From a virus (taxonomy: Duplodnaviria; Caudoviricetes): 64,000 nucleotides of DNA. Below, one piece after another: positions 21,247-37,934 of this stretch; position 1 is the stretch's first letter; each line of letters opens with the position of its first letter. The notes beneath the pieces were generated by a model, which ran no database searches, was not told the DNA's origin, and saw nothing but the letters and a program-made list of their open reading frames with translations. The stretch lies in the IMG/VR virus record IMGVR_UViG_3300043567_000723; one strand, given 5' to 3'. Made by a program: the position numbers and the translations under genes.

Positions 21247-21254
21247 TTGATACA

Positions 21255-21596: not shown

Positions 21597-21600
21597 TATA

Positions 21601-21719: not shown

Positions 21720-21722
21720 TTT

Positions 21723-21856
21723 AACCGGGCGCTCCTTGCCTTCGGATACCACTGCGGGGAATCTCGTAGTGAGCTGCCGACGTGGGGGAGCACTAAGAAC
21801 AGCTGCAGCTGGGCTTAGATAAGGGCTGGGGCGTAAATGGCCCACCCGGTTTTTTT
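21723..21856 (+). ncRNA. Unclassified multi-branch structured RNA candidate ending in a U-tract
   Basis: AACCGGG/CCCGGTT closing helix followed by a T-run; internal GCTCC/GGAGC, CACTGCGG/TCGTAGTG, CTAAG/CTTAG, GGGCT/GGCCC. Confidence 0.5.
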
Positions 21857-21918
21857 CTTTGCTCGTGGCACGTTGTCACGGGTTGTCCAGTGGTTTTTTA
21901 ACGTAAGGATACGTTTAT

Positions 21919-22533: not shown

Positions 22534-22811
22534 TAGCCGATATTGTGCACGCGTAGCCGGGCTGAAGTATGTTCTGCCATTCTTCAGCCCGGCGCGCTTA
22601 TTTTGATATCTGGTCGCCCGACGCCAGTGCGTACCCAACTCTCAAGCTCAGCTTGTCGGTTGATGATGCGCAGAGGATTGGGTATTGGTCGGCTGTTTCG
22701 GGAATGTGGACAGCCGGTCGAGATTGTTAAGCATGTTCCTCGTCCTCGCATTGCCCGCGTGCGAAGGATTAAATTGAGCGGGCTTTTTTTTCTTTACAGG
22801 AGGTTACTAGC

Positions 22812-23054
22812 ATGGCTAATCAGAAGGATCTGAAAATCGTTGAGTGCGAAATCACCGGCATGCCAAACGACATGTTCGACCCGATGCCGCAAGTTCGCGT
22901 GCGTTTTGAGGGCAGCGCGGCTGACGACTTTGTCACGCTGTTTTCTTACTTCCCTGACGAGCTGGAGTTTTCAACCAGCGAGTTCATCAACCTGACGCGC
23001 ACACAAGCTATGCGGTTGTATAGCGATCGAGATGTTGCCTACCTGAGAAACTAA
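22812..23054 (+). CDS. Hypothetical protein
   Basis: AGGAGG RBS; FDPMPQVRVRF...LFSYFPDELEF motif. Confidence 0.7.
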   Translation: MANQKDLKIVECEITGMPNDMFDPMPQVRVRFEGSAADDFVTLFSYFPDELEFSTSEFINLTRTQAMRLYSDRDVAYLRN

Positions 23055-23320
23055 TGATGTCAAAACCAGCTGTCGGTAAACGCATTAAACTTCTGGGCGC
23101 AATGGTAAACCCAAACTCGACTTGGATGCCCGTAGAAGAAGGTATGGCGAAAGATCTGGAAGGCACGATTGTGCACATGAATTTTAACGGCCCGCCTGAG
23201 TATCACCAGATTAGTGTGAACTGGGATAACGGACGGACGTTGGCTATTTTGCCATACGTTGATGAATTCATTGTGCTTGATTATGCAGACGTTTTCACTA
23301 AGCATGAAGGAGATGCGTGA
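23054..23320 (+). CDS. DUF4314-like SH3-fold protein
   Basis: GKRIKLL..M...GTIVHM...QISVNWDNGRTLAILP..D.F pattern. Confidence 0.6.
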   Translation: MMSKPAVGKRIKLLGAMVNPNSTWMPVEEGMAKDLEGTIVHMNFNGPPEYHQISVNWDNGRTLAILPYVDEFIVLDYADVFTKHEGDA

Positions 23321-23323
23321 GCT

Positions 23324-23656
23324 ATGGCTGGTTACGAAGGCATGCGCAACGGCGTAGTTGAGAAGTTAAATTCTGTCGGCAACTGCCCCGCCTGCGGAGG
23401 CAGTTGGGACGGCGGAGACATTCTTGAAAGCTTCACCGCCCTACGCGAAAAGGGTGCTGAGTATTACAAGAACAAAACGGATGAAGAGCTGAAACAAATA
23501 GCCGGCCAGTATGGCTGGACTGTTGAGAACCCACAAAGGTTCAGCAAGTTAATCGGCGTGGAGTTGCCGTATTCGCACCCGCAGCATTACGACGGCGTGT
23601 CGTTTTGGCGGTGCCCGCACTGTAAAGCACAGTGGTCGCGTTTTGGTAACGCCTAG
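23324..23656 (+). CDS. Zinc-ribbon protein
   Basis: CPACG...FWRCPHCK. Confidence 0.65.
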   Translation: MAGYEGMRNGVVEKLNSVGNCPACGGSWDGGDILESFTALREKGAEYYKNKTDEELKQIAGQYGWTVENPQRFSKLIGVELPYSHPQHYDGVSFWRCPHCKAQWSRFGNA

Positions 23657-23668
23657 AAAGGATAATAA

Positions 23669-23920
23669 ATGTGCGATAACGCGGAACATGAAACAGAGTA
23701 CTCATCGTACGACGACGGTTATGACGCACGCTATTGCGTTGACTGCAACGAGTGGCTTGAGCAAAAGTGCAGTGATCCAGATTGCATGTACTGTGGCGTT
23801 CGTCCAGATCGCCCGTTACCTGTGGTTGTAAATCTAAAAGCAATTGAGTGTTGTCGTAGTTCAGCGGCGGCACTGGAAGCGGCTAAAAACGGAAACTATG
23901 ACCCAGAAAAGGAGTACTGA
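23669..23920 (+). CDS. Cys-rich hypothetical protein
   Basis: YCVDCNEWLEQKCSDPDCMYC; AAGGA RBS. Confidence 0.65.
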   Translation: MCDNAEHETEYSSYDDGYDARYCVDCNEWLEQKCSDPDCMYCGVRPDRPLPVVVNLKAIECCRSSAAALEAAKNGNYDPEKEY

Positions 23921-24573
23921 TGCGAGTTTATATTGGCCCGTACCATCATTGGTTTGCGCCTTACCGCTGGGCTAAGAAACTACTGCGGAAATGGTACGAT
24001 GTCGACGGCCCGCGCATAAACCTTGAAACCTACGACAAGGTTAACCGTATCGCGCGCAGGCGTTTTAAATGGTTGCGTTTTATTGAAGAATGGTTCGACT
24101 CTCGGTACAAGCGTAAAGTTAAAGTGCGCGTGGACTACTATGACACGTGGGGAATGGACTCTACGCTTTCGCTCGTTATCCTGCCTATGCTCAAGCAGTT
24201 AAAAGCAACCAAGCAGGGTTCGCCGAGCGTGGACGATAGCGACGTGCCGGACGAACTTAAAAGCACTAGTGCGATCCCCCATATGACAGACGCGCAGTTA
24301 GCCATGGGTGAGGTTGACAGCAATTTGCACAAACGTTGGGAGTGGGCCCTAGACGAGATGATCTGGGCGTTTGAGCAGATGAACGACGAGGACGCGGACA
24401 GTAAGTTTCACTCAGACGCTGACCCAGCCAAGCCCCGCAACGAACCCGGCATCTCGTTTGAAGAGGGCATGAAGCGCGGTAAGTTCGACATGGAAGGCTA
24501 CATGGCGTGGCAGAGCAGGAAGACTCGTGGTCTTACCCTGTTTGGCAAGTATTTCGAAAGTCTTTGGGATTAA
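23920..24573 (+). CDS. Conserved phage hypothetical protein
   Basis: MRVYIGPY...YDTWGMDSTLSLVILPMLKQLK...RWEWALDEMIWAF...LFGKYFESLWD, a pattern recalled from large myophages. Confidence 0.7.
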   Translation: MRVYIGPYHHWFAPYRWAKKLLRKWYDVDGPRINLETYDKVNRIARRRFKWLRFIEEWFDSRYKRKVKVRVDYYDTWGMDSTLSLVILPMLKQLKATKQGSPSVDDSDVPDELKSTSAIPHMTDAQLAMGEVDSNLHKRWEWALDEMIWAFEQMNDEDADSKFHSDADPAKPRNEPGISFEEGMKRGKFDMEGYMAWQSRKTRGLTLFGKYFESLWD

Positions 24574-24579
24574 ATAACA

Positions 24580-24738
24580 ATGACCGACTGGCAAAGGGCT
24601 TGGCGTTATTGCGGCAAAACGCGGAACAGCGCCAAGGGTAAGAAAACGCTAAAGCGGGATAACCACCGCAAGAACCGGATCATGGCCAAGAAGTTGGATG
24701 ACGTTTACGTGCGTCTCAGCGGTTGGGACGTCATTTAA
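24580..24738 (+). CDS. Small basic protein (52 aa, not in the ORF track)
   Basis: ATG 24580 to TAA 24738; MTDWQRAWRYCGKTRNSAKGKKTLKR. Confidence 0.5.
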   Translation: MTDWQRAWRYCGKTRNSAKGKKTLKRDNHRKNRIMAKKLDDVYVRLSGWDVI

Positions 24739-24758
24739 ATAACCACAAGGAGTTAAAC

Positions 24759-24971
24759 ATGACAAAGAATCAAACTCTCGTGTCACTAGTAGACTGTGTC
24801 GCGGATATCATGAAAAGCGACACCAGTATCGCGCGACGTTTTATCGTGGAGGGTTGCGTAAAATTTAACAGCAACACTGTTTCTGATCCCGCGTTTCGTC
24901 TGCCTGATGGTGAACAATACAAAATACGAATAGCCAGTTTCAATTTCGCGAAACGCCTCTTAGAGCAATAA
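24759..24971 (+). CDS. Stand-alone S4-like RNA-binding domain protein
   Basis: SDTSIARRFIVEGCVKFNSNTVSDP matches the S4 consensus S.S.ARRLI..G.V..NG..V.D; AAGGAG RBS. Confidence 0.55.
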   Translation: MTKNQTLVSLVDCVADIMKSDTSIARRFIVEGCVKFNSNTVSDPAFRLPDGEQYKIRIASFNFAKRLLEQ

Positions 24972-24990
24972 ATAACCATAAGGAGTTACC

Positions 24991-25278
24991 ATGCATTACG
25001 TGACTTTGCGGGCGTTGGGAAGTGGCGAGTCGCATCACCACATCCGTGGATATGTTACGGACCACAACGGAGACTATTTGCTGGAAATCGGCAACACTTG
25101 CCACGCCGATCCACGGCTCATGGCTTTTGCGGCGATGTTCCCGGAAATCGAAGAATTCTTGCGGGTGATCGATTCTCCGCTGGCCAAGTTGTTGCTCAGC
25201 CAGTTGAGCGACACGGAGCACACGCTACGCAATCGGTTGCGGGCGTCTGAGTACGGCGCCGACGCTGCGACGCATTAG
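24991..25278 (+). CDS. Hypothetical protein
   Basis: AAGGAG RBS; 95 aa. Confidence 0.6.
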   Translation: MHYVTLRALGSGESHHHIRGYVTDHNGDYLLEIGNTCHADPRLMAFAAMFPEIEEFLRVIDSPLAKLLLSQLSDTEHTLRNRLRASEYGADAATH

Positions 25279-25283
25279 TCATT

Positions 25284-25293
25284 GATATCTAAA
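25284..25293 (+). promoter_or_regulatory. RATAKCTAAA motif, first of 9 copies (+ at 25284, 26061, 28505, 30122, 31102; - at 25907, 26981, 31050, 33961)
   Basis: Exact 10-mer matches read from the sequence; 8 of 9 are intergenic (the 31102 copy lies upstream of the likely ATG 31124). Confidence 0.6.
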
Positions 25294-25310
25294 AAAAAAG
25301 GAAATCAACC

Positions 25311-25598
25311 ATGCGGGTTCTTGACGCGCTGATTGATCTGATTAAAGTGAGAGACCAGTTGGCAAACATGGAAGAGAAGCTACAGCATCTTCGCCGTGTT
25401 GTTGACGGGTCCGTGAATGAAATCATGGACTTTATGCAAGAACAAAATCTTATTAAGGTGGCAGATGTCGGCGACTCGGACTGCAGCGGCTTGGAACAAC
25501 CAATGGTGGGCGGAAGTAGTACACAAGGAGAAAGCAGCGTTGGAACCGACAGTGAACACGAAGAGTGGTACCCGCTACAAGACGGACCCGGAGATTGA
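25311..25598 (+). CDS. Hypothetical protein (coiled coil, acidic tail)
   Basis: 95-aa ORF with AAGGA upstream. Confidence 0.55.
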   Translation: MRVLDALIDLIKVRDQLANMEEKLQHLRRVVDGSVNEIMDFMQEQNLIKVADVGDSDCSGLEQPMVGGSSTQGESSVGTDSEHEEWYPLQDGPGD

Positions 25599-25599
25599 A

Positions 25600-25752
25600 G
25601 TGAAAAATCTCCGCAAGGCTCTAGCGCAGATCCGTACGGCTGTCATCAAGTGGCAGCATGAGATTCACGCCGGCTATGAAGGCGGCGAGGCGGATGACAT
25701 TAGCCAGCGGTTCTCCGCGGCTATTGTGGCGACGATCGACCGCGTAAGCTGA
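25600..25752 (+). CDS. Small hypothetical protein
   Basis: GGAG upstream of GTG 25600. Confidence 0.4.
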   Translation: MKNLRKALAQIRTAVIKWQHEIHAGYEGGEADDISQRFSAAIVATIDRVS

Positions 25753-25874
25753 GTCGCTTTTAATACTGTTAGCACAAGCGGCGCCTAGCGCATGTAGCCG
25801 CTGCTTGTGCTAACGCATTCTTGGCGGCCGGTTGGTCGCTTCGGCACGAGCGTGGGCCTCGTTAACCCCACAAA

Positions 25875-25909
25875 AGCCGGCGGGGATGCGCTTCCCTGCC
25901 GGTTTTTTT
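25875..25909 (+). terminator. Rho-independent terminator
   Basis: GCCGGCGGGGA-loop-TTCCCTGCCGGT followed by a T-run. Confidence 0.75.
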
Positions 25910-26095
25910 AGCTATTAGACGTAAAGTCTTGTCAAATAAGCACTTACGTCCGCAGGGTATTGCCGCTCGACCTAAACCATTGTCAGTAAAAGACTTACGT
26001 AAAATGCTTTGTGCAGCTTTAAGGTGCGCTTTGAAACAGGTAAAATAACCCGGCGCTATAAATATCTAAATCCGTCTAATCCGGGGAGTCGCACC

Positions 26096-26179
26096 ATGCC
26101 AACATATGGGTACTTTATTGGCGACTACGATGACGAAGACTTAGACGACTTCGATATGATCATCTTTATTGACCTCTAA
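26096..26179 (+). CDS. 27-aa acidic peptide MPTYGYFIGDYDDEDLDDFDMIIFIDL
   Basis: GGGGAG RBS 7 nt upstream of the ATG. Confidence 0.45.
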   Translation: MPTYGYFIGDYDDEDLDDFDMIIFIDL

Positions 26180-26280
26180 ATTCGCCGCCAAATACGGGCA
26201 TATTAAGTGAATGATGGGCGTAAGCCATAGTACTTACGCTTTCTTTACTTAAAGGCAACTCGTATGAAAAAGGCGAAAAA

Positions 26281-26541
26281 ATGCTCACGACGTTTATCGG
26301 GGTCTTGGTTGTTTGTGCGGTTATTGGCTGGATTGATTCTGCGATCCGCCAGTCTGCCGATTTCGATGCCCTAAAGAAGCGCTGGTCGGAACCTACTCCA
26401 CCGCCAGCTCCGACGCCGCAACCAGTACAACCCACAACAGGGCGGCGTATTATTCTTGACGCCAATGCGCAGCCGATTAGTTCGGCATCGCCAACGTCAT
26501 TTGATACGCGGGCTTATGAGGGCAATTGGCTGGCGAACTAG
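26281..26541 (+). CDS. Small membrane-anchored protein
   Basis: N-terminal TM segment and Pro-rich linker. Confidence 0.55.
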   Translation: MLTTFIGVLVVCAVIGWIDSAIRQSADFDALKKRWSEPTPPPAPTPQPVQPTTGRRIILDANAQPISSASPTSFDTRAYEGNWLAN

Positions 26542-26566
26542 GCTTTAAACCTTTCGTGGAGTTTAT

Positions 26567-26938
26567 ATGTTTACGCAAGGAGAAGCTGAGAACGCTATCT
26601 GCACTACACTTAATAAGTTTATGCAGGAGTACATGGGGAAAGGAGCAACTACCATAAAGACTCGTATTGCAGGCGATATGGTCATTGTGCGTATTTCTGG
26701 GATGTTAACAAAAACAGAGCAGCTGTTAGCGCAGACGCCTAATGGCTCTGAGTTGTTAAAGTCTATGCGTCGGCATCTCATGGTAGACGCCGGTACAGAG
26801 CACTTTAGCCGGGTTTTCGCAGAGTTATTGGAAACACCGGTTTTAAATATCTATTACGACTGCAATTTATTAACTAACGAAGAATTCTTACTGGCGACGT
26901 TGCTTGAAGAACCAACGTTTCGTCAAAAGAAAACTTAA
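26567..26938 (+). CDS. DUF2294 / MpsC-like protein
   Basis: AENAICTTLNKFMQEYMGKGATTIKTRIAGDMVIVRISGMLTKTEQLLA...LLKSMR pattern characteristic of DUF2294. Confidence 0.75.
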   Translation: MFTQGEAENAICTTLNKFMQEYMGKGATTIKTRIAGDMVIVRISGMLTKTEQLLAQTPNGSELLKSMRRHLMVDAGTEHFSRVFAELLETPVLNIYYDCNLLTNEEFLLATLLEEPTFRQKKT

Positions 26939-26941
26939 ACT

Positions 26942-26983
26942 AAAGCGCGGTGGATAAATCTACCGTATTCACGCGCTTTTTTT
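26942..26983 (+). terminator. Rho-independent terminator
   Basis: AAAGCGCG...CGCGCTTT followed by a T-run. Confidence 0.7.
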
Positions 26984-27122
26984 AGCTATCAGTATTTCTC
27001 GCCCTTTTCTTCACGCAATCTTTCTGCCAAAATGGGCGTATTCAGCTTGGGAACAGCCGCGCGATCTTATTCATAGCCAACTATTCGGAAATACCTATTA
27101 GTTGGCAGACAAGAGCTACGCC

Positions 27123-28493
27123 ATGCCATTTAGATCTGAAAAGCAACGGCGCTTTCTTTGGGCCGAGCATCCAGATATTGCCAAACGCTGGGCGCACGAG
27201 TATCCGCAGAAGAAAAAACTGCCCATGTACGCAGACGACAAGGATAAAACAAAAATGAACCGCGCATCAGACGTTAAAGCAGCCTGTGATAAGTATATGG
27301 CTCAAATTAAGTTAACAACCGGTCAGAATATTGACGTAAATCCAGTGTTAACAAAGCTTTACGGCAAGTTAAGTAAACAAGCGGATTCCACGACGGTTAA
27401 AATGACGATGCCGCAGGGGACCAAGCCAATGGCCGCGGGAGAAGAACCTGTGGAGCCAGCGAAAACCCAGCAAGATCCAGATTCGGGCTGCGTTACACCG
27501 AAAAAGCCTGAAAACATGATGCTTTCTAAACTCTCGGTTGTGCTTTCGCAGTCGATTATGCAAGCGCTTGAGAACGAAAAAGCCGAGGCAGAGGCCCGAA
27601 ACGCCCAACTTATGCCGGCGAACGCTGGAATTAAACGTTATGCTATGCCAGCTAATGGCACCCCGCCTCCGATGGGTATGGCTCAAAGCGCTGCTCCTGC
27701 TGCGCCCGCTGCTCCGGCAGACCCCGCTCAATCTGGCCAGCTGCCGCCTGTCGGTGGTGGTTCGAACCCGTCGGCGAACCCTATTAATTCCTATGGCGCT
27801 ATCTCTAGTAGCGGCGAAATTAATGGCAACGCAGCTTTCGGTGGCCCCAGCATTGGCAAGCTGGCTTCTTCCCCGGCGTGGCAGCGTAGTGCCGGTAAGA
27901 ATCCAGAAGGTGGCCTCAATGCCAAAGGCCGCGCCAGCTATAACAAAGCCACGGGCGGCAACCTCAAAGCCCCTGTGACGGAGAGTAATCCCACAGGCGA
28001 ACGGGCCTCGCGCCAGAACTCTTTTTGCTCAAGGATGTGTGGCATGAAAAAAGTAAACACCGGCGCTGAAACAAAGAAAGATCCTGATTCGCGCATTAAC
28101 AAATCTCTGCGCAAATGGAACTGCAAATGCTCTAGTGCGTACGAGTTTGGCAAGCAGGCTGGCATATTTAATAGTCTGGCTGGCTTAGTGGGCCGCGGCG
28201 CTACGGCTGCTGTGAAAGCTGCCCCGGTAGCTGCGCCGAAGTTAAATTTCGCAACAGCACATCCGTCTGTGTTAGGCCCACTTGCGTCTGCCCGAGGCCA
28301 AGCTTTACCGGCCGACCTCTGGGATGTACTGCACAAATGGAAAAACCCACGGCCAGCTGTAGCGCCCGCAAACAGGCTTCGCGTAGGCGGAAACCACTGG
28401 AATCGCTTTGGCGAGACTATGACCACACCAGAGCAGCAGCAGGCTTTAAGCGCAGCGACCCAGCGTTGGCGAGATGCTGCCGCGGCGAAATAA
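27123..28493 (+). CDS. Modular putative internal virion protein with K-x-A sites (includes a DUF6321-like module)
   Basis: MPFRSEKQRRFLW module; AWQRSAGKNPEGGLNAKGRASYN...SRINKSLRKWNC module; KAA, KQA, KLA and KQA motifs at the module borders. Confidence 0.7.
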   Translation: MPFRSEKQRRFLWAEHPDIAKRWAHEYPQKKKLPMYADDKDKTKMNRASDVKAACDKYMAQIKLTTGQNIDVNPVLTKLYGKLSKQADSTTVKMTMPQGTKPMAAGEEPVEPAKTQQDPDSGCVTPKKPENMMLSKLSVVLSQSIMQALENEKAEAEARNAQLMPANAGIKRYAMPANGTPPPMGMAQSAAPAAPAAPADPAQSGQLPPVGGGSNPSANPINSYGAISSSGEINGNAAFGGPSIGKLASSPAWQRSAGKNPEGGLNAKGRASYNKATGGNLKAPVTESNPTGERASRQNSFCSRMCGMKKVNTGAETKKDPDSRINKSLRKWNCKCSSAYEFGKQAGIFNSLAGLVGRGATAAVKAAPVAAPKLNFATAHPSVLGPLASARGQALPADLWDVLHKWKNPRPAVAPANRLRVGGNHWNRFGETMTTPEQQQALSAATQRWRDAAAAK

Positions 28494-28610
28494 GCCTAGG
28501 CGCTGATATCTAAATAAAAGCCCTATTTCGGTCATATTCAGTGATGCCCAGTAGTGTATTGGGCTGTCCTGTACCCCGGCTGCACTCTTTGCAGCATAAG
28601 GAGGAGACCG

Positions 28611-28820
28611 ATGATTCTTTGTAAAAAGATCAAGCAGTTTTTCAGTCCACCCATATCGACCGCTCGCCTTAACGCAAAGATTGACGCTGTGGAAAACACC
28701 GTTGATCGTTTGCTGGCCGTGGTCGAACAGTCAATGACAATGCAGCGTGAGCTGGTTGTGTCATACGACGTGCTGTCGCGCAAAGTGGACGGAATCCTGC
28801 AAACCACAGAAGGGAAATAA
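28611..28820 (+). CDS. Small coiled-coil protein
   Basis: GGAGGAG RBS before ATG 28611. Confidence 0.65.
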   Translation: MILCKKIKQFFSPPISTARLNAKIDAVENTVDRLLAVVEQSMTMQRELVVSYDVLSRKVDGILQTTEGK

Positions 28821-28822
28821 CT

Positions 28823-29032
28823 ATGATTACAGAATTTCCCCCTGAGATTCTGCCTGAGTCTGAAGTAGCTCGGCACACCCAAGATTGCGTCGAGAACTGG
28901 CGAAAGACGCTGCCTGCAGAAGAGTTTGCTGAGCTGGAAACGCGCTTGCGGGACCAGTTTAACCAGACTGTAACGCAAGCCGCTGAGATCCTTGTTCGGA
29001 CGTGGTTTAATCAGAAAGTACGTGTCATATGA
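28823..29032 (+). CDS. Small hypothetical protein
   Basis: 69 aa, tightly coupled to its neighbours. Confidence 0.6.
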   Translation: MITEFPPEILPESEVARHTQDCVENWRKTLPAEEFAELETRLRDQFNQTVTQAAEILVRTWFNQKVRVI

Positions 29033-30123
29033 TGAAGCTCTACAACGGGCCAATTCATGACATAGACCTCGACGAACCACCGGATACGCGCTGGATTCAA
29101 TTCGCTAGCTCCCAAGCTGGCGCAATTCATAAGCTCCTTGCCGACATCGAAACATGCGTCGACGAAGAGCTTTCCTCGCGTCTTTGTGCGCCACTTCGTG
29201 CAGTGCTTATGGCTGCACTAAGCGGCGGCGGTTCATTGTTACGCTACGTCGTGAGCTGGTTTGGCGAAGAATACACCCAAGAGTTAGCGTGCATTGCCAA
29301 GCACGCTGACGTACCTGTGGGAAAGCTCATGCTGGGGAATCTCATCTATGACTTTACGTCTCTTTCAGAGATGTACGGTTGTGGCTGCTCCAGCGTGAGT
29401 TTTGAAGTTAACGAGTCGCCGCTTTTGGTTCGAAACATGGACTGGGTTATGCCGCGCAGCACTGGCCGGCATACCAAAGTCATACGCTTTCATCGTGGTG
29501 GCAAAGCCTACACTGCAGTAGGCGTTGCCGGCATGGTGGGTGTTGTTTCAGCCATGAGTGACGACTGGGCGGTGACAGTAAATCAAGCGCCAATAGTAGA
29601 AAAACTAAATACTATTGCTGGTGTGCTGTCGTCGCCCACGCTGCTGTGCAGATGGCCCGCGCTCCAACGCGTTCGGGTCGTTTGTGACCAGCTGCCCAGT
29701 TACAACGGTATGGTACTTGGTCTTCGTGGCCATAAAGCGCTCGTGCCGTTTTTTGCGCACGTCGTTGGCACGAAAACTCGGGAACACACTGTGGTAACGC
29801 ACGTCGGGAATGACTCTACGATTCGCACGAGGCGGCACAGCATTGTGCAAACGAACCATTATGTTGCTGGCGAGTACAAAGCGTACAACATGCCAGAAAT
29901 AACAGCAGATGGTTGTCGGTGGAGTACGTTTAATCGGTATCGAAAAGTTAAGCAACGGCTGCAGACCGCGCTTGACGAGAAAGAGTTTACGCAAGAAGTA
30001 GCTAAGCAACCTGTGCGTGCTTTGAGGCTTCTGGCGTCTGCAACCGACGAGGACACCATGCAACAAATGGTATTGTGGCCCGCGCGGAAGCAAATGGTTC
30101 TAAAAACCCGGCTGAACGGCTGA
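29029..30123 (+). CDS. Ntn-hydrolase of acid ceramidase/NAAA or C45 type
   Basis: Alpha-chain-like N-half (YTQELACIA...GKLMLGNLIYD), then G-CSS nucleophile Cys, LLVRNMDW, AGMVGVVSAM and VQTNH. Confidence 0.75.
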   Translation: MMKLYNGPIHDIDLDEPPDTRWIQFASSQAGAIHKLLADIETCVDEELSSRLCAPLRAVLMAALSGGGSLLRYVVSWFGEEYTQELACIAKHADVPVGKLMLGNLIYDFTSLSEMYGCGCSSVSFEVNESPLLVRNMDWVMPRSTGRHTKVIRFHRGGKAYTAVGVAGMVGVVSAMSDDWAVTVNQAPIVEKLNTIAGVLSSPTLLCRWPALQRVRVVCDQLPSYNGMVLGLRGHKALVPFFAHVVGTKTREHTVVTHVGNDSTIRTRRHSIVQTNHYVAGEYKAYNMPEITADGCRWSTFNRYRKVKQRLQTALDEKEFTQEVAKQPVRALRLLASATDEDTMQQMVLWPARKQMVLKTRLNG

Positions 30124-30244
30124 TAGCTAAATAAAAGCCAAAAGCCGGGTATATCTAATGATGCGAATGTGTTATTCGTGTCCCCATATCAAGTTACATG
30201 GGTTTCGGCGTAACTGTGTTCTCCATGTTTAAGGAGCCTATCAG

Positions 30245-30958
30245 ATGGTTGCTACTGCAAAGAAGAAGGTCAACGTCAAGGCTGCTCGCAAGTCCGGCAC
30301 GGTGAACCGCGCGGGCGCTGGCAAGACTCGTACCAAGGCCAGCACGGCCAAGCCCATGACGTCCAGCGACGTCGAGGCCGTCGTGCACCGCATCATCGAC
30401 GAGCGGTCGATGGTGGCCCGGGTGCGTGAGACGGCTGTGCCCGTGATCGCGGTCGTGTTCGAGGGTCTGCAGAACATCGCCAACTCCGTGTGGGCGTTCT
30501 GTGGCAAGGTGTACACCACCTGCCGCGACGCGCTCACGGCGATGCATCACTGGCTCGGCGCGCAGATGCACGCCGCGGCTGGGCAGTCCAAGAAGGCGTA
30601 CGAGCAGCTGCGTGAGCTGGTCGGCTCCATGAGCATGGAGTCGGCAAGCGCGGCGGTTGTGGGCCTGATGGCCACGGCGGCTGCGGTCGGCATCGCCATC
30701 GTCACTGGCGGCGCTGTCGGCGTTGCCATGACTGGCGTTGCGACGAACCTTGGCGCCAGCGCTGCGGTGGCCCAAGTGACGAGCGTGATTTTCGCGTCGA
30801 TCTCGGCGGTGTGCGTTGCCGAGGTGATGTACGCGCTCGCGCTCGCCGGCCTGAGCGATCAGCTGCTCGCGGCAGCCAAGATCGAGGCTGAGGCCAAGGA
30901 CCGCGCGGCCAAGACCATCGTGGTCAACGCCGTGAAGGTCGCGCCCGTTGGTGCGTGA
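30245..30958 (+). CDS. Membrane protein with Lys-rich N-terminus; atypically G/C-ending codons
   Basis: AAGGAG RBS; basic tail followed by Ala/Val/Gly-rich TM helices; third codon positions almost all C/G. Confidence 0.7.
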   Translation: MVATAKKKVNVKAARKSGTVNRAGAGKTRTKASTAKPMTSSDVEAVVHRIIDERSMVARVRETAVPVIAVVFEGLQNIANSVWAFCGKVYTTCRDALTAMHHWLGAQMHAAAGQSKKAYEQLRELVGSMSMESASAAVVGLMATAAAVGIAIVTGGAVGVAMTGVATNLGASAAVAQVTSVIFASISAVCVAEVMYALALAGLSDQLLAAAKIEAEAKDRAAKTIVVNAVKVAPVGA

Positions 30959-31018
30959 ATTTTTACGCTGGATCTTCCTGACCAGCGTAAAGATCTTTAC
31001 TGTATGTAAAGGTCAAAT

Positions 31019-31052
31019 TGGTGGGTGCCCGCAAGGGTGCCCACCTTTTTTT
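31019..31052 (+). terminator. Rho-independent terminator
   Basis: GGTGGG-TGCCC-GCAA-GGG-TG-CCCACC followed by a T-run. Confidence 0.8.
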
Positions 31053-31123
31053 AGCTATCAGAGGTCGTAAGTTACAATAAACCGAGCTATAATCTGCCTT
31101 TGATATCTAAATCAGGTTGCGCC

Positions 31124-32896
31124 ATGCCGCCCAATGACAATGAAAACGGCGTTGATTTGCGTACGCTCGGTGGTGCGGGTGGCGCTGCGCTCCCCACGAT
31201 TGGCCTGCTGGAGTATTTGTTCTCCACGCTGCCGAAGTATCGCAAACTAATTCAAGACGCCCCTGACTGGTCTACTGTTGACGGCAACGTAGACATGAAC
31301 AAAGCCATGCGCACGCTACGGCCGGGCGATTTTGGCGTGGCTGGTTTGCAGCGTAGCAAATCCGGCCCCTTGGTAAATTTCTTAATCAACGGCTCGGCTA
31401 TTACCTCTGGCGGGCCGGGCGCGCATGGCCAGATGGTCGGGCCGTATATTCAGGCGCCGTACTCTGTAGCGAACACACCCAAAAGCGGTAAGCCCCCGGC
31501 GCTGCCCTTTTTAATGAACGACCGCGGCGAGTTATACAACTCATCACTCGCGCGCAACCGACAGGGCTTCATTGATGAAATTGCGCCAAGCCCGGAGAAC
31601 ACAGAGCAGTATTTAACGTCATACGGCAATACAAAGCGCTACGGAATACTTAAAGAACGCCTACGGGCGATCAGCCAGCAGCTGCAAGAGAACGGCGGTA
31701 CCAAGCAGCTGCGCGGTGAACGCGCACAAACAGTGAGCGATCTGAAGCGCCTTTTGGGTAGTCAATCCTTGCGCGCGTTCTTTGAGGGCACGCCGCAAGC
31801 GCAGGCCAAGAGTACGCTGGCGCGCATTCAGCAACTAGCAGACCAGACGACCGGCGAAGCAGCTACTGGCCAGAAAGCGCGTTTGCTTGACTTAGCGCAG
31901 CGGTTTGCTGGACGTGGTGAAGCTGGCGGAAGATCCACGCAGCTGGCTGAAGAGATCAAACGCACTGTAGAGCGCATGGGCACGCAAGGTAATTTACCCA
32001 GATCTACGTTATTTCGTCCCAAGGCATTTGAGACGTTTGTGCCGACGCTGCATCACGGCGGCATTGGTGGCGCAGCGCGTGATCCTGTGTTTCATATGTT
32101 CGAATCGCTGCCAGAATCCGTGCAGCGCGATATCGCAAAACGACAAGGCATTGGCCTGCGAACACTGCGCAAACAAATGGAGAATAACAAGCGCCAAATG
32201 GTGCTTGATCGCCGGGCGGCTAAGAAAGCGCCGTGGAAATTTAACGCTGGAAGCAGCTTGGGTATAGATAACGTGTACGACGATTTGGCCAGAGACCGCT
32301 CGGCACTATTTCCCGAAGGTTATTACTTCAATCAGCCCCGCGGCACGATCTACGCCCGCGCGGCAGATCACGTAGATGACGCGAAGTTAAACAAAGCACT
32401 GCAGGCTCGTACGGCGACATCGTATGCCTCGGCAGACGCGATGGGGGCCGGCGGTAAAGAAGTCACTGGTATCAATACTATTCGACGGCGCCTTCCCTTT
32501 TTGCAAAAGCTGCCGTTTATTGGGGGTCGTGGAATTGGCTCCAAATCATGCTGGGGCGACCATTGCGGCTCGATGCCGTCGGCTGTTCTTGACGATATTG
32601 GCGCTATAAAACCTAAGCTTCCCCACGCAGACGTTTTGCCCAATACGTTATTAACAGACAAAAACGTTAAGATATTAGGTGTCACGAATAAGCCGTTGAT
32701 CATGAAGCAGCTTATGCAGTCGGCGGGGCGGCGCTCTTTTTTGGGTCTGGGCGCTGCTGGATTGATGGGGGCTGCGGGTTACGGTCTGGGCGCTGTCGGC
32801 AATGCATTAAAAGCATCGCCGGCGAAACCCATGCCTCCGCAGTTGGATCCCCACATGTTTGCACAGGCCCAAAAACTCCTGCAGCCGAGATCATGA
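31124..32896 (+). CDS. Permuted papain-like NlpC/P60 (YiiX/YebB-type) protein with a large insert
   Basis: LRPGDFGV...GAHGQMVG (His first) and, far downstream, HCGSMPSAVL...DVLPNTL (Cys second); C-terminal Gly/Ala TM-like helix. Confidence 0.55.
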   Translation: MPPNDNENGVDLRTLGGAGGAALPTIGLLEYLFSTLPKYRKLIQDAPDWSTVDGNVDMNKAMRTLRPGDFGVAGLQRSKSGPLVNFLINGSAITSGGPGAHGQMVGPYIQAPYSVANTPKSGKPPALPFLMNDRGELYNSSLARNRQGFIDEIAPSPENTEQYLTSYGNTKRYGILKERLRAISQQLQENGGTKQLRGERAQTVSDLKRLLGSQSLRAFFEGTPQAQAKSTLARIQQLADQTTGEAATGQKARLLDLAQRFAGRGEAGGRSTQLAEEIKRTVERMGTQGNLPRSTLFRPKAFETFVPTLHHGGIGGAARDPVFHMFESLPESVQRDIAKRQGIGLRTLRKQMENNKRQMVLDRRAAKKAPWKFNAGSSLGIDNVYDDLARDRSALFPEGYYFNQPRGTIYARAADHVDDAKLNKALQARTATSYASADAMGAGGKEVTGINTIRRRLPFLQKLPFIGGRGIGSKSCWGDHCGSMPSAVLDDIGAIKPKLPHADVLPNTLLTDKNVKILGVTNKPLIMKQLMQSAGRRSFLGLGAAGLMGAAGYGLGAVGNALKASPAKPMPPQLDPHMFAQAQKLLQPRS

Positions 32897-32935
32897 GATA
32901 GCCGACTAAATATACATCTACGACTGGGGGCCGCT

Positions 32936-33778
32936 ATGGACGCGCGCGAATTCTTTGCCCTACTTTTCCGCCACGTGATTCTTATTCTAGCCGGCGCTCA
33001 TGTAGCGCTGGCCGGCACGCGGGACCCCAACACGCCAGACGAAAAGTACGTCGAGTTTGGCAAGCAGTTTCCGTCTGTGCTGCGCATCCGGGCAAATATC
33101 ATTGACCCCGAAAGTAAGTACCCCTACCAGTATGGCTCTGCAGTGGCTATTCGGCCGCACTGGATTCTTACGGCAGCGCATGTGTTAGCCGGCGCTGAGA
33201 ACCCCGTGGCGATTAAAGACGGCGACAAGAAGTTCGCGCTTGGCCCTGTGTTCGTCCATAAAGACTTTGAAGAAGAGACTGTAGGCTTTCACGACATCGC
33301 ATTGCTGTACTCGCCCGAAGATTTTGAGCTAAAGTTTTACACGCCGCTGTATACAGACAAAGATGAAGTTGGCAAGGCTGTGACGATTGCCGGCTATGGT
33401 TTCTACGGGACGTTTCATACGGGCGGCAAACAAATAGATAGCAATAAGCGCGCCGGGCATAACAAAATAGACAGCGCTGAACGCGCGGTTCTTTTATGCA
33501 GCCCCAGTGTGACAAACCGCATGCCGCTAGAATTCATGATTGCTTCTGGGGATTCCGGTGGTGGCTTATTTATCGGCAACGAATTAGCCGGGATTAACTC
33601 TTTTCTCATGGCTACTGACAAAAAACCCGACGGAAGTTACGGCGATGACGCGGCTTTTACCCGTGTGAGTTTGTACGCGGATTGGGTAGAATCACAGATC
33701 GCGGCGTATGAATTAAAGATAGCCGGCAAAGGCACGCTCGCGGCAGATCTAGATTTAATCTCCCCACCTGAAGAGTGA
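32936..33778 (+). CDS. Secreted trypsin-like serine protease (S1)
   Basis: Signal peptide; LTAAH, HDIALL and GDSGGGL catalytic triad motifs. Confidence 0.92.
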   Translation: MDAREFFALLFRHVILILAGAHVALAGTRDPNTPDEKYVEFGKQFPSVLRIRANIIDPESKYPYQYGSAVAIRPHWILTAAHVLAGAENPVAIKDGDKKFALGPVFVHKDFEEETVGFHDIALLYSPEDFELKFYTPLYTDKDEVGKAVTIAGYGFYGTFHTGGKQIDSNKRAGHNKIDSAERAVLLCSPSVTNRMPLEFMIASGDSGGGLFIGNELAGINSFLMATDKKPDGSYGDDAAFTRVSLYADWVESQIAAYELKIAGKGTLAADLDLISPPEE

Positions 33779-34041
33779 TCATGGAAAGTCTGTCGCTGTT
33801 GGTATTGTCGACGTTGATATTTTTACTATTCTGCGCCACATATCTCTGCGGGCCAATCGCCGCATTGTTTGCGGTGAAAAAATGGTCAATCGCCGCAGTG
33901 GTTACCGGAGCGTTTGCGTGCTGGCTCGGTATTTACTTCTTCGTCACGGTAAACACGGAATTTAGATATCTAGGTCTAGTATCAACTGGTTTGGGGCTCT
34001 GGGCGATGTACAAAATCGCGCGCAATATCATGGCGGACTGA
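33775..34041 (+). CDS. Small three-TM membrane protein
   Basis: Entirely hydrophobic 88-aa ORF coupled to the protease gene. Confidence 0.6.
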   Translation: MIMESLSLLVLSTLIFLLFCATYLCGPIAALFAVKKWSIAAVVTGAFACWLGIYFFVTVNTEFRYLGLVSTGLGLWAMYKIARNIMAD

Positions 34042-34042
34042 C

Positions 34043-36223
34043 ATGAGCGAACTTCCAAATAGTATTTCTAGCGCGGTTACGATATGGGCGGCTAAACAGG
34101 CTGACCTAAACCCTGATATTCAGCTGCAAGACCACCAGCAAAGAATCGCCGACAGAATCTCGGGCCAAGATCCCAGATTATTGGTCTATCACGGCCTAGG
34201 TTCGGGGAAATCTTTATCGGCGCTCGCTGCGGCAGAAGAAGCGCAGAACCAGAGCGGCGGGAATTACGGCGTCGTAGTCCCGGCGAGCTTGCGGGGAAAC
34301 TTCCAGAAAGAAATTGGCAAGTTCACGCATGACTCGAATCCAGAGATCATGAGCTACACGGGCTTAGCCTTGGGCAAGAACTTCCAAGAGCAGCCCGACA
34401 CGCTGATCATGGACGAAGCACATAGACTTCGCAATCCACGTTCAGGGGCAGCGCAAGCAGCAGCGCAAGCAGCGGCAAACGCCAAAAGACTCTTACTGCT
34501 CACAGGCTCGCCGATCACAAACTCGCCCAGTGACATGGCGAATTTGTTATCTATGCTGAACAACAAGCAAATTACGCCAGAAGAGTTTGAAGACCGCTAC
34601 GTAGGTTATAAGACAGTCCGGCCGGGCATCATGGGCTGGTTACGGGGCGCAAAGCCCGGCGTCAAGCCAGTCGTAAAGAACGAGGCTGAGTTACGCGCGC
34701 TCCTGAAGGGCAAAGTCGATTATCAGCCCAGCAAGACTCCCGACGGCGTGAACGTACAAGAAGAACAAGTCAAAGTGCCCTTATCAGCCGAGCAGCAAAA
34801 GATCCAAAAAGCTATTCGCACTAAAATTCCACCGGGTTTTCTCTGGAAGCTTGACCAAGAGTTTCCCCTAAGCCGCGACGAACTGGCGAAGTTAAATTCG
34901 TTTATGACGGGCATGCGCCAAGTGAGTCTGTCCACGCAGCCGTTTCGCGTGGACAAAGACCCGGCGAAAGCGTTTACACAGAGCGCGAAGTTACAAAAAG
35001 CATTTGAAGACCTGCGCGCTACGCTGAAAGAAGACAAGCGCAAAAAAGCTATTATCTACTCGAATTTTATTGACTCTGGCTTGGCCCCCTACGCGTCTGC
35101 GTTAGAAAAAGCCAAGATCCCGCATGCGTTTTTCCACGGCGGCGTCAGCCCAAAGGCGCGCCAAGCCGCCGTGGACGCATACAACACGGGCAAGCTTAAA
35201 GCTCTGCTCATTGGCCCTGCGGGCGCCGAAGGCTTGTCTACAAAAGGCACGAGTCTGATCCAGCTCTTAGATCCGCACTGGCATGAGTCGCGCAGTCAGC
35301 AGGCCAAGGGCCGTGGGTTGCGTTTTGACTCGCACGTGGGATTACCAGAAGAACTCAAGAACGTCGCAGTAAAAAGATATCTAAGTGCGTCGCAAAATCC
35401 CAGCTTGCTTGGCAAACTCATGGGCTACAAGCGCGAACGCACCGGCGACGAAGTTCTAGAAAGACTCACAGCCGAAAAAGAACAGATCAACGAAGAGTTT
35501 CGCCGGTTACTTCGCGAAGAAGGCTCGCAGTACGCAAACCAGCAGCAAGAAAAGCTTGGCGCTGCAGCTCCGCCAGACTTTCAGCCAGACTATACGCCGG
35601 GCCAGTTACACGGCATGGGTGTATACAAGTCTTTGTATGAACAAGAGGGCCCGAGATTAGCCAGCTTAGGCGAATGGAAGCCAGAATGGGTCACAGAGCA
35701 TGACCCCAAGGGCTGGCTGGAGTGGTACCAGAACTATAACGCCGGCCGTAGAATCCCCGACGAAGACATGCGGCAGATCAAGCGCTGGGCGAGTTTCAAA
35801 GCACGCCACGGCGGGCCATTTGTAAAGAAACCGTCGCCACGTAGAGGGTGGGCGCTACGAAACTGGGCGATTGACCCAGAGAAGCTAGTATCAAAATCCC
35901 GCGCGGGTGATATCAAAACCATGCTGCAAGAGTATCAAGAGAAAGAGCTGAAAAAATATCTTAAAAAACAGCCCATGCTGGCTGAAAAAACCAGCGCTAA
36001 TATCGCCGCGCCGTTAAAACTCCTGCAAAAGCATGTAATAGCTGTTAGTTCGCGGCCTCTTCCAAAGAAAAAGAAACGCCTGCTACAATATGTAACTGGT
36101 TTACCCCACCCCAAGGTGCCGGTGAAGCGCGTTATTGATAGCATCCTTGACGACGAGACTTCTCATGCCGCTCCCGATGATCTCGCCCAGCAAGCTGCCG
36201 GAGATGCTGCTGTCTCGTCGTAA
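34043..36223 (+). CDS. SNF2-like (SF2) helicase fused to a C-terminal domain of unknown function
   Basis: HGLGSGKS (motif I), MDEAH (II), LTGSP (III), EGLSTKG (V), QAKGRGLR (VI); then PDFQPDYTP...GWLEWYQNYNAGRR..DMRQIKRW domain. Confidence 0.88.
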   Translation: MSELPNSISSAVTIWAAKQADLNPDIQLQDHQQRIADRISGQDPRLLVYHGLGSGKSLSALAAAEEAQNQSGGNYGVVVPASLRGNFQKEIGKFTHDSNPEIMSYTGLALGKNFQEQPDTLIMDEAHRLRNPRSGAAQAAAQAAANAKRLLLLTGSPITNSPSDMANLLSMLNNKQITPEEFEDRYVGYKTVRPGIMGWLRGAKPGVKPVVKNEAELRALLKGKVDYQPSKTPDGVNVQEEQVKVPLSAEQQKIQKAIRTKIPPGFLWKLDQEFPLSRDELAKLNSFMTGMRQVSLSTQPFRVDKDPAKAFTQSAKLQKAFEDLRATLKEDKRKKAIIYSNFIDSGLAPYASALEKAKIPHAFFHGGVSPKARQAAVDAYNTGKLKALLIGPAGAEGLSTKGTSLIQLLDPHWHESRSQQAKGRGLRFDSHVGLPEELKNVAVKRYLSASQNPSLLGKLMGYKRERTGDEVLERLTAEKEQINEEFRRLLREEGSQYANQQQEKLGAAAPPDFQPDYTPGQLHGMGVYKSLYEQEGPRLASLGEWKPEWVTEHDPKGWLEWYQNYNAGRRIPDEDMRQIKRWASFKARHGGPFVKKPSPRRGWALRNWAIDPEKLVSKSRAGDIKTMLQEYQEKELKKYLKKQPMLAEKTSANIAAPLKLLQKHVIAVSSRPLPKKKKRLLQYVTGLPHPKVPVKRVIDSILDDETSHAAPDDLAQQAAGDAAVSS

Positions 36224-36296
36224 ACTCTTTGAAGCTATCGCCGCGAACGTCGCAAAACGAAAAATTCAAAACTCCATTCAAGCCACAGGTGACAGA

Positions 36297-37934
36297 ATGA
36301 GCGTAACGCCGCAGCAATTCGGTATGCAACTGGGTCAGCAAGCAAAGCAGGCAAACTTAGGCAACGCTTTGCGCGGCCTTGGTATTCAAGCTGGTCGCGC
36401 TGGCTTACGCCTTGGTAACGCTGCCAAGCCGCTTGTCGATGAAGCCACAAGCATGGCGAACACTGGCGCGCAAAGATTGGGCCAGACGATGTTCGGCAAC
36501 CCTGTTCGCGCTGCTGTGTCGGGCGCTGGCTTAGCAACAGCTGGTCTTGCCTACGGTGATCATCTGGCGGCTAAGAACCAAGCGATGTCGCAGCTGAAAG
36601 ACGTTAACAACGACGTGCAGAAGTTCAAGTTAAATGGCGTGGGCAGCGGCATGAAGATGCCGCAAATGCCGTCTAATGGTGTAATGCCGCGCAGCACTGG
36701 CCAAGGCGGTCTTACGGGCGGCGGCGGTCCGTTGTCGATGTCTCTGGCCGGCAAGCAAGCCGGAATCGTACCGAGTGTGTGGGATGCTACTTCTAAAAGT
36801 CTTCAACAGCGCGCTTCTTTACTCCAAGACATGTTTGCAAACTTGCGGCCGCTGGCTGGGCGCAAAGGTTTAAATGCCGTTGGGGCTGCATTTAAACCAG
36901 AAAAATATAACGGTAACTGGGGTCGCGGTTTAACCACGCAGCATCTGAGCAAAATGACCGATGATGCGTCGCAACAGCTCGGTAGCGTGAGTGATAAATT
37001 AGAAAACCTGCAAGATCTTTTTCCATTAAAGAAAGCTTCGCTACTCTCGGCCCTTAGCGGCGGTTTGGGTGCTGGCGTCGGTGGCCTCGCTGGCGGTATG
37101 GGTGGCGGCATGATGGGTGCGCTTACCGGCGGCGCGTTAGGTGGCGCTCCGGGTGCTGGCATTGGTCTGCTCTCTGGCGGCGCGCTGGGCATGGGCGCTG
37201 GTGCGCATCTGGGCGGTAACATCGGCGCGAGCATTGGCAAGAAAAAGAAGAAAGACGACGAGCCTAAGAAAGAAGAATCGGCCGAAAAAGAAGAAAAATC
37301 CGATGAGGGCGAAGAAGAAGTTAAAAAGAGCGCCGCGGCTGTTTTAACTTTGCTGCAGAAAAACAACCCAGAGCAATTTAAAGCAGCGGCGGGCCCGGGC
37401 ACAGCGGAATTCGGCACGAAGGTGACGCCGACGGGTAGCCGACGTGCCGGCCCGATTGTAACTCAGCCGAAGCCGATTCGGATGCCGGTTGGTCCTGCTC
37501 CGGCGGCACGACCTGCGGCTGCTCCGGCTGCTGCTCCGGCGGCTGCTCCGGCGGCACGACCTGCGGCTGCTCCGGCTGCTGCTCCGGCGGCTGCTCCGGC
37601 GGCTGCTCCGGCGGCACGACCTGCGGCTGCTCCGGCTGCTGACCCGCGGCGCCAATATACGCCGTTTGATTGGAATAAATATCCGCACGACCAACAGAAA
37701 AATTTTGAGCGTGACGTGACACGGCGAATGTATACACAGTACGGCGTCCCCGAGCACGCTATGCGGATACCAAAAAGCGCGCCTGATCTATGGCAGAATG
37801 TGCCGCAAGACCAGCGAAAAATGATGGAACGCGATGTGCAAGAGCGGTTGTACGGCCAGTATGGTGGTGTGGAAGCGTTTAATAACTCGATGAGCGACTG
37901 GGCGCAGCGCGAAGCCACACCGCCCGCGCAGTAA
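36297..37934 (+). CDS. Gly/Ala/Pro-rich putative internal virion protein with K-x-A sites (start moved from 36135 to ATG 36297)
   Basis: MSVTPQQFGMQLGQQAKQAN leader; KQA, KKA, KSA and KAA motifs; glycine-zipper GGLAGG..GALTGG segment; PAAA repeats. Confidence 0.7.
   Translation: MSVTPQQFGMQLGQQAKQANLGNALRGLGIQAGRAGLRLGNAAKPLVDEATSMANTGAQRLGQTMFGNPVRAAVSGAGLATAGLAYGDHLAAKNQAMSQLKDVNNDVQKFKLNGVGSGMKMPQMPSNGVMPRSTGQGGLTGGGGPLSMSLAGKQAGIVPSVWDATSKSLQQRASLLQDMFANLRPLAGRKGLNAVGAAFKPEKYNGNWGRGLTTQHLSKMTDDASQQLGSVSDKLENLQDLFPLKKASLLSALSGGLGAGVGGLAGGMGGGMMGALTGGALGGAPGAGIGLLSGGALGMGAGAHLGGNIGASIGKKKKKDDEPKKEESAEKEEKSDEGEEEVKKSAAAVLTLLQKNNPEQFKAAAGPGTAEFGTKVTPTGSRRAGPIVTQPKPIRMPVGPAPAARPAAAPAAAPAAAPAARPAAAPAAAPAAAPAAAPAARPAAAPAADPRRQYTPFDWNKYPHDQQKNFERDVTRRMYTQYGVPEHAMRIPKSAPDLWQNVPQDQRKMMERDVQERLYGQYGGVEAFNNSMSDWAQREATPPAQ
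37495..37640 (+). repeat. Low-complexity coding repeat (GCTCCGGCGGCACGACCTGCGGCTGCTCCGGCTGCT x3 plus GCTCCGGCG units) encoding APAARPAAAPAA
   Basis: Direct reading of the tandem units. Confidence 0.9.

Follow-up and report, generated by a model that had tools for sequence, protein, structure and literature searches.

Cluster A mycobacteriophages carry stoperators (the L5 gp71 sites), many copies of an asymmetric ~13-bp word that lie in short intergenic spaces at gene boundaries. For lambdoid phages, morons, boundary (linker) sequences and the module theory of phage genomes have reportedly been set out by Juhala et al. in 2000, by Clark et al. in 2001, and by Susskind and Botstein. Arbiol et al. 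(2010, PMC2839356) and Comeau et al. (2014, PMC4122927) described promoter-early stem-loops (PeSLs) and PmSLs in T4-type phages, with variants that carry a Mot box and with promoter boxes specific to a lineage. Here we describe a short word that recurs at gene boundaries in a 64,000-nt stretch of viral DNA (the window; IMG/VR record IMGVR_UViG_3300043567_000723), which corresponds to G000:C1:46697-110696 of a single viral contig of 157,526 bp. Positions are those of the window unless the contig or a relative is named; genes of the region carry labels beginning with F, and related phage contigs carry labels beginning with L. We consider it probable (about 0.68) that the word punctuates transcription units and at the same time provides homology for modular shuffling, in the manner of PeSLs, in a lineage unrelated to T4.

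A clustered word at gene boundaries

An exact motif scan of both strands found nine matches to the 10-mer RATAKCTAAA in the window, all of them within 25284-33970: forward copies at 25284, 26061, 28505, 30122 and 31102, and reverse copies at 25907, 26981, 31050 and 33961. Dinucleotide-preserving shuffles of the window gave a chance expectation of 0.32 copies (standard deviation 0.55), with 0 of 100 shuffles reaching nine. A first-pass annotation of this DNA, made by a model from the letters and a list of open reading frames (ORFs), had reported the same nine copies on the same strands and none elsewhere in the window, and our scan agrees with it. The clustering is real, since the whole contig has 15 copies and nine of them fall in one 8.7-kb stretch, so that a uniform spread is not what we see; each of the other six is either isolated or within coding sequence. 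The first-pass annotation had also described forward and reverse copies as inverted pairs that bracket gene blocks. The alternating order is genuine, but paired sites are not needed to explain it: it reflects placement on the promoter side or on the terminator side of units in a genome with essentially all of its genes (~155 in the contig, by a crude gene call) on the + strand.

The 10-mer is the core of a longer asymmetric boundary word of 12-20 nt, (GC)GCTGATAKCTAAA(A/T)AAA, or spelled out (GC)GCTGATA(G/T)CTAAA(A/T)AAA. The extended consensus is identical in both orientations, forward copies reading GCTGATAgCTAAATAAAagCc and reverse copies, once complemented, gc.cTgATAGCTAAAaaAA. The forward word holds stop codons in three frames (c-TGA-TAG-c-TAA-a-TAA), and the stop codons of F13 in the window, of F11 in L008 and L010 and of F05 in L009 lie inside it; such stops may end any gene that comes to be joined upstream, be this functional or incidental. 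Among intergenic 7-mers of the contig TTTAGCT is the most enriched, with seven of its eight occurrences intergenic. A literature search did not find these words mentioned in a phage context.

Relatives were gathered from IMG/VR, JGI metagenomes and a large assembly collection, giving ~15 lake-phage contigs that range from 92-94% nucleotide identity (L039, L041 and L042) to 42% identity of the F13 protein (L026). In all but the most distant relative (L028) we found the word, the unit of hairpin, T-tract and tail, and the two-box element (both described below) at syntenic positions. The system is specific to this lake clade, since the nearest annotated relative, Salmonella phage Arash (33% identity), has neither an exact tail word nor a two-box match.

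Reverse copies in predicted terminators

Three reverse copies (25907, 26981 and 31050) belong, on the coding strand, to the arrangement hairpin-TTTTTTT-AGCTAT(C/T). In each, a run of seven T (T7) stands behind a GC-rich hairpin that follows a stop codon, which bears out the earlier remark that three reverse copies are joined to terminator U-tracts; copy 33961 does not have this arrangement. The three predicted terminators, with the free energy (dG) of each, are as follows.

25877-25916, + strand: predicted intrinsic terminator; hairpin 25877-25902, T7 run 25903-25909, tail AGCTATT; motif 25907-25916; dG -26.6
26945-26990, + strand: predicted intrinsic terminator after the MpsC gene; hairpin 26945-26976, T7 run 26977-26983, tail AGCTATC; motif 26981-26990; dG -15.1
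31020-31059, + strand: predicted intrinsic terminator after F14; hairpin 31020-31045, T7 run 31046-31052, tail AGCTATC; motif 31050-31059; dG -24.0

The hairpin-plus-tail arrangement of the first is also present in relatives, the second forms the left edge of the F11 module, and the site of the third is in relatives a point of cassette insertion or loss. A fourth terminator of the same make lies 13 kb upstream of the window. The four TTAGCTAT copies behind T7 runs mark the best coding-strand terminators of the contig, with upstream dG of -15 to -27.

For 49 coding-strand copies of TTAGCTAT we observed a mean upstream dG of -23.4 kcal/mol, as compared with -12.1 in random windows; for 17 copies in the other orientation it was -6.8 kcal/mol (14 non-redundant loci in each case). 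A hairpin with T-tract accompanies ~46 of the 49 coding-strand copies. Conversely, the exact tail is found on 27 of 38 strong sites with a hairpin and a T5 run, and near-variants on most of the rest. The tail is invariant behind stems of unrelated sequence; thus the unit is not a transposed repeat, and the constraint rests on the word itself.

Forward copies on a two-box promoter-like element

At 28505 and 30122 the forward copy overlaps box 1, the upstream box of an element with the consensus aGCTAAATA-N7-AAA-n-cCGGg-CATATy-tAnTGA, in short form GCTAAATA-N18-CATATY. With a position matrix we detected five strong sites in 157 kb, scoring 29-51 bits against at most 13 in shuffles, at window positions -14734, 17355, 26175, 28509 and 30126; each lies between genes, on the coding strand. 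Across the phage family the spacer is 18 nt in 42 of 46 matches. Fixed spacing, strand specificity and an intergenic position upstream of genes, all shown by this element, are features of a two-box promoter of the sigma70 family. Three of the sites lie in the accessory-gene region.

26174-26241, + strand: two-box element without the full 10-mer; box 1 cTCTAAAT 26174-26181, box 2 CATATT 26199-26204, leader hairpin 26216-26241; 33.4 bits
28500-28572, + strand: forward word GCGCTGATATCTAAATAAAAGCC overlapping box 1; 10-mer 28505-28514, 18 nt, box 2 CATATT 28533-28538, 5' leader hairpin; 42.5 bits
30117-30215, + strand: forward word CGGCTGATAGCTAAATAAAAGCC overlapping box 1; 10-mer 30122-30131, 18 nt, box 2 TATATC 30150-30155, two leader hairpins

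An orthologue of the first is present in L007-L010. The site at 30126 scores 50.7 bits, the highest value in the contig, and the TGA stop of F13 (30121-30123) sits within its word CGGCTGATAGCTAAATAAAAGCC.

Orthologous leader hairpins start ~5 nt past box 2, and double compensatory changes preserve 10 of the 14 pairs of the F14 leader. Selection at the RNA level would thus begin where a transcript from the two-box element would begin, since the covarying hairpins directly follow box 2; this points to the element as a promoter. A sigma70 scan recovered none of the two-box elements, which do not fit a consensus of the TTGACA-N17-TATAAT type. In relatives 15 of 57 tails are followed 10-14 nt on by box 1, giving a composite unit of hairpin, T-tract, TTAGCTATcag, 10-14 nt and GCTAAATA-N18-CATATY; in the window a TATAAT -10 box stands at 31088, past tail 31050. 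Convergent minus-strand promoters at the reverse copies were considered and rejected, there being no box 2 on that strand and no minus-strand genes. Hence, in the alternative that the first-pass annotation offered, operator or convergent promoter sites, the promoter part survives for copies 28505 and 30122 and the convergent part does not.

Many other intergenic regions carry -10-like words TATAA(A/T/G) after G/C-rich bases (ccggTATAAT, cgcTATAAA, ggaTATAAG), for example at window positions -3269, 2111, 6429, 37938, 37987, 64835 and 68481. These may represent the general promoter class of the phage, distinct from GCTAAATA-N18-CATATY. The T4 late-type TATAAATA was seen, by eye, at two sites only.

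Module junctions between relatives

Core gene order is conserved among the relatives, but those intervals in which tails occur are hyperplastic. Between F14 and F15 the distance ranges from 169 bp in the window to >1.3 kb, with one to three tails; the F15-F16 gap, which has no tail, is a steady 43-57 bp in most relatives.

Several junctions could be located precisely. L007 has one tail where L008 has a tail, a promoter, a gene for a 122-aa protein and a second tail; its sequence is the L008 left flank up to TTTAGCTATCA and then the L008 right flank, with base precision. In L021 and L022 the F11 module is translocated to the other side of F13. The left edge of this module is a tail in all four phages compared, homology starting at TTTAGCTATCAGCGC with four unrelated hairpins leftward of it. 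At the L021 junction the hairpin and tail that follow F10 in L009 are joined to the promoter and leader that follow F11 in L009, which places the crossover between the tail and the common GCTAAATA box. The F03-F06 slot holds three genes in the window, three different ones in L039 and none in L042. Four upstream contexts (window, L039, L042 and L009) meet here at an invariant TGATATCTAAA island, which is copy 25284, and around this copy homology resumes at 25268 against L042 and at 25320 against L039. In comparison with L042, the replaced C-terminus of F11 stops one base before copy 28505 and homology restarts exactly at the word.

Counted over all comparisons, the elements held 49 of 545 unique breakpoint ends, about five times the 9.7 expected, and none of 1000 randomisations went above 20; for noncoding ends the count was 37 of 127 against 12 expected. 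Breakpoints are equally numerous in tails and promoters (22 each), and about half of the elements hold one. Synteny comparison maps the breakpoints of indels, replacements and one gene translocation onto the words, as the first-pass annotation had anticipated in suggesting cassette ends.

The crossovers are spread anywhere in the common sequence, be it tail or promoter, and the events seen are all between copies of like orientation; no inversions were found in ~15 genomes. Searches of the contig, which is 77% complete by CheckV estimate, gave no match to tyrosine or serine recombinases (PF00589, PF00239), RecT or an HNH nuclease. They did identify a gene of the RecA/UvsX family at G000:C1:21608-22978, outside the window (28.2 bits, above the Pfam cut-off). 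The recombinase that the first-pass annotation proposed to look for was thus found as a gene of this family and not as an integrase or resolvase. Likewise, its notion of cassette ends holds as far as the breakpoints are base-precise at the motif and enriched there; a dedicated gene-capture system is not supported, given the lack of a matching recombinase in the contig, crossovers as frequent in tails as in promoters, and ordinary terminator hairpins.

The remaining copies

Two forward copies stand near sigma70-like -10 boxes, one forms a linker between genes and one reverse copy is coding.

25284-25293, + strand: intercistronic linker, TGATATCTAAA and an A-run, between the F05 stop (25276-25278) and the F06 start (25311)
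26061-26070, + strand: forward copy in the 5' untranslated region (5'UTR) of a small acidic ORF (26096-26179), ~15 nt past a sigma70-like -10 box TAAAAT (26041-26046)
31088-31111, + strand: sigma70-like -10 box TATAAT (31088-31093), then forward copy 31102-31111, in the 5'UTR of F15 (ATG 31124)
33961-33970, - strand: reverse copy in the coding sequence of the small membrane protein F17, within an 88-aa ORF (33775-34041); no hairpin, no T-run, upstream dG -5.9

Copy 25284 is the right edge of the hypervariable slot. Downstream of it, ORFs 25311-25598 and 25417-25752 overlap in different frames and both are matched in relatives, the L039 gene call retaining the second only; either one of the pair is spurious or a frameshift is hidden here. 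Copy 26061 is kept only in L010 among six aligned relatives, and is found also in the close relatives L039 and L042. Of these two, L042 has copy 31102 and L039 lacks it. F17 has a conserved counterpart in L010, and in L039 and L042 copy 33961 is kept as coding sequence only; it is probably a chance match.

In the stretch 25917-26180, after tail 25907 (whose 'TATTAG' variant six phages conserve), come two conserved imperfect palindromes ACGTAA...TTACGT that look like operators. Past them stands a sigma70-like -10 box, GTATAAT in four relatives and GTAAAAT in the window. The conserved 27-aa acidic ORF at 26096-26179 has its stop TAA inside box 1 of the next promoter. The spacer 25917-26095 was tried as a structured RNA and rejected (z = 0.37, no covariation).

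Gene content of the contig

The contig is a fragment of an uncultured, distantly Arash-like freshwater or lake jumbo phage with its own bacterial-type RNA polymerase (RNAP). The protein encoded at 57537-61973 fuses RNAP beta domains with N-terminal domains of beta'. The helicase gene at 34043-36223 has its best similarity (33%) to gp217 of Arash, whose gene adjoins one for an RNAP subunit of that phage; mass spectrometry of Arash virions detected this helicase along with RNAP subunits and a sigma factor (PMC10585845). The helicase of the window, an SNF2 enzyme of this virion type, has 726 aa against 901 aa in L039, the difference being due to a ~560-bp insertion near the N-terminus (window 34048-34088 versus L039:17558-18122). 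Sigma70_r2 had no match in the contig and Sigma70_r4 only a 15-bit sub-threshold match, so that a phage sigma is not established.

Genes near the motif are small and almost all are ORFans without family matches, the exceptions being DUF6321, a weak Ntn-hydrolase-like signal, MpsC/DUF2294 and a trypsin-like protease. Phage and plasmid collections gave no megablast match to the region, and tblastn of the 598-aa protein against phages likewise gave none. An Rfam search over 20000-38500 returned only a tmRNA and two tRNAs, with no RNA family at the motif sites.

The gene at 30245-30958 (F14) had been noted as compositionally distinct, and so it is, with GC of 0.67 and third-position GC (GC3) of 0.85 against ~0.53 and 0.55 in its neighbours. 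It is not a recent capture, since GC3 is equally high (0.82-0.91) across all relatives; F14 is an old, compositionally odd member of its family. The MpsC/DUF2294 gene (26567-26938, GC 0.42), which directly precedes terminator tail 26981, was found in L039, L041 and L042 (85-93% identity) and in no clade member more distant than these; it is likely a sub-lineage acquisition.

Upstream of the accessory region lie genes for tRNA-Glu (20398-20470) and tRNA-Leu (20607-20682) and a full tmRNA gene (21255-21599; tag peptide GTFNSVPALAA). Beside this tRNA cluster L039 has an insertion of ~670 bp (L039:2281-2950, between window 19932 and 19991), which carries an ORF of 164 aa (2401-2895), the region's only one on the minus strand, and may be of the homing-endonuclease type.

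Interpretation and alternatives

Built on sequence anatomy, conservation and the positions of breakpoints, the reading that we prefer is that the word punctuates the accessory-gene (hyperplastic) region of a jumbo-phage clade. Reversed on the coding strand, its A-run would supply the T-tract of a terminator, leaving AGCTATCAG past the release point. In forward orientation, its GCTAAAT(A) would be the upstream box of a rigid promoter (18-nt spacer, CATATY, tAnTGA), and transcripts from this promoter would start with a protective 5' hairpin. One forward word (25284) would be a bare gene linker supplying stops in several frames. As the words are repeated at many unit boundaries, they could, together with the promoter boxes, serve as short homology for recombination of the RecA/UvsX type, which would delete, insert, replace and translocate modules of promoter, gene and terminator. 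If so, the word would provide a practical rule for locating module boundaries and promoters in such genomes, would define a small promoter class, GCTAAATA-N18-CATATY, and would give natural examples of accessory-gene swapping by jumbo phages.

Several points weigh against this reading. The activities of terminators and promoters are predicted from sequence only, as are the polymerase or factor that would read the signals and the mechanism of recombination. A search for RNA sequencing runs returned none. In canonical intrinsic termination AGCTATCAG after the T-tract has no role. Box 1, GCTAAATA, is unlike the -35 box of sigma70, and C is a frequent last base of box 2; the promoter could be read by a host sigma, a phage sigma or an activator. 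The reading gives no reason why one asymmetric word should persist in both orientations. Conservation is poor at copies 26061 and 31102, and 33961 lies in coding sequence. Within the window no tail directly precedes a two-box promoter, the composite units being those of relatives. Finally, the five-fold excess of breakpoints is somewhat inflated, since alignment ends (ends of high-scoring segment pairs) coincide with the edges of conserved islands.

Some of these points would be natural if the word were the binding site of a phage-encoded sequence-specific regulator (a stoperator- or MotA-box-like repressor, an activator or a sigma-associated factor) acting over the accessory region, with terminator and promoter contexts secondary and breakpoints a by-product of conservation. 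The word has traits that such a site would have: it is asymmetric, of 12-16 nt and multicopy, its places are strictly intergenic or at boundaries, and its conservation reaches far past its flanks; like factor sites, the word occurs in either orientation and at a variable distance of 10-14 nt from box 1, and a bound factor would give a role to AGCTATCAG. The phage has its own RNAP and a weak match to sigma region 4, Arash virions carry RNAP and sigma (PMC10585845), and Mot-box PmSLs exist in T4-type phages. Still, family searches identified no candidate binding protein among neighbouring genes, no locus has a fully symmetric site, and the hairpin and T-tract that accompany nearly all coding-strand copies (~46 of 49) would be superfluous for a free-standing operator. 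We regard such a regulator as unlikely to be the primary reason for the word; it is compatible with punctuation and does not exclude it. Two specific sites were rejected: the dimer operator CTGATAGCTATCAG is absent from every locus, and on inspection the TTR part of the IHF-like (integration host factor) site WATCAANNNNTTR is not conserved past the tail.

More speculative, and to our mind rather improbable, is a word that serves as the recognition signal of a dedicated phage factor (a sigma or RNAP that this lineage may have in its virions, or a new DNA-binding protein), which would couple termination, re-initiation and targeted exchange of modules in either orientation. If true, the word would be a 'gene-junction signal' of a DNA phage and not passive common homology.

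An integron-attC-like site, with hairpin and conserved core acted upon by a dedicated recombinase that inserts and excises cassettes, is suggested by the variable-sequence hairpin beside an invariant core at cassette ends, by base-precise junctions and by the unrelated ORFans in cassettes. We find it hard to credit this idea, as searches of the 77% complete contig gave no IntI-type recombinase and no match to Phage_integrase, Resolvase or HNH, and the hairpins are those of ordinary terminators, with canonical GC-rich stems and a coding-strand T7. Moreover, no inverse core stands upstream of them to form an inverse core pair, crossovers are as frequent in the promoter as in the tail, inverted copies gave no inversions in ~15 genomes, and the cassettes are not promoterless, having promoters of their own.

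That the copies are chance or compositional matches, or functionless remnants of a small mobile repeat similar to miniature inverted-repeat transposable elements (MITE-like), would suit 33961, the six coding or isolated copies elsewhere in the contig and the not well conserved 26061 and 31102, but it is very improbable, being contradicted for eight of the nine copies by their number against 0.32 expected, by retention of the word at orthologous sites down to 42% protein identity while flanks and stems diverge, and by the tie of coding-strand copies to strong hairpins; nor do the unrelated stems suit a transposed repeat.

Comparison with known systems

With stoperators the present word shares its many copies, its asymmetry and its location at gene boundaries. 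Stoperators, however, have a single orientation and a known repressor and belong to temperate phages, whereas here both orientations occur on one direction of transcription and most copies are joined to hairpin-T7 terminators. We found no DNA-binding family that could supply a stoperator-type repressor among the neighbouring genes, and no integrase match in the contig.

Lambdoid morons are similar in that accessory genes with their own promoter and terminator are placed between conserved genes, with short conserved sequences at the junctions. The flanks of morons have no common word; here one word is present at most junctions across a deep clade.

The likeness to PeSLs is the closest. Both systems have composite intergenic elements of stem-loop terminator, A/T-rich tract and promoter (here in relatives, at 15 of 57 tails), both are located in hyperplastic, ORFan-rich regions that differ between relatives, and in both a cassette between two elements in one phage corresponds to a single chimeric element in another (L007 versus L008, L021 versus L009). 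Crossovers at differing points within the common element, lineage-specific promoter boxes and a phage-encoded recombinase of the RecA/UvsX type are further shared traits. The differences are that the host of the elements is a lake jumbo phage, similar to Arash and encoding a beta-beta' RNAP, and not a T4-type myovirus; that the upstream promoter box is GCTAAATA and not TTGACA-like; that the best-conserved piece is a short asymmetric word right after the T-tract, found also inverted, on box 1, or as a bare linker; and that in the window tail and promoter modules are mostly separate, the system described here being known from sequence alone. PeSLs are defined also by demonstrated promoter and terminator activity and by excised mini-circles. 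As far as our literature search found, PeSL-type cassettes have otherwise been described essentially only in T4-type phages. The observations presented here suggest that the same logic, in which terminator and promoter signals double as exchange points for accessory genes, operates in an unrelated clade of uncultured RNAP-encoding jumbo phages, with the unusual trait of a short asymmetric word placed, in both orientations, on the terminator T-tract or on the upstream box of the promoter.

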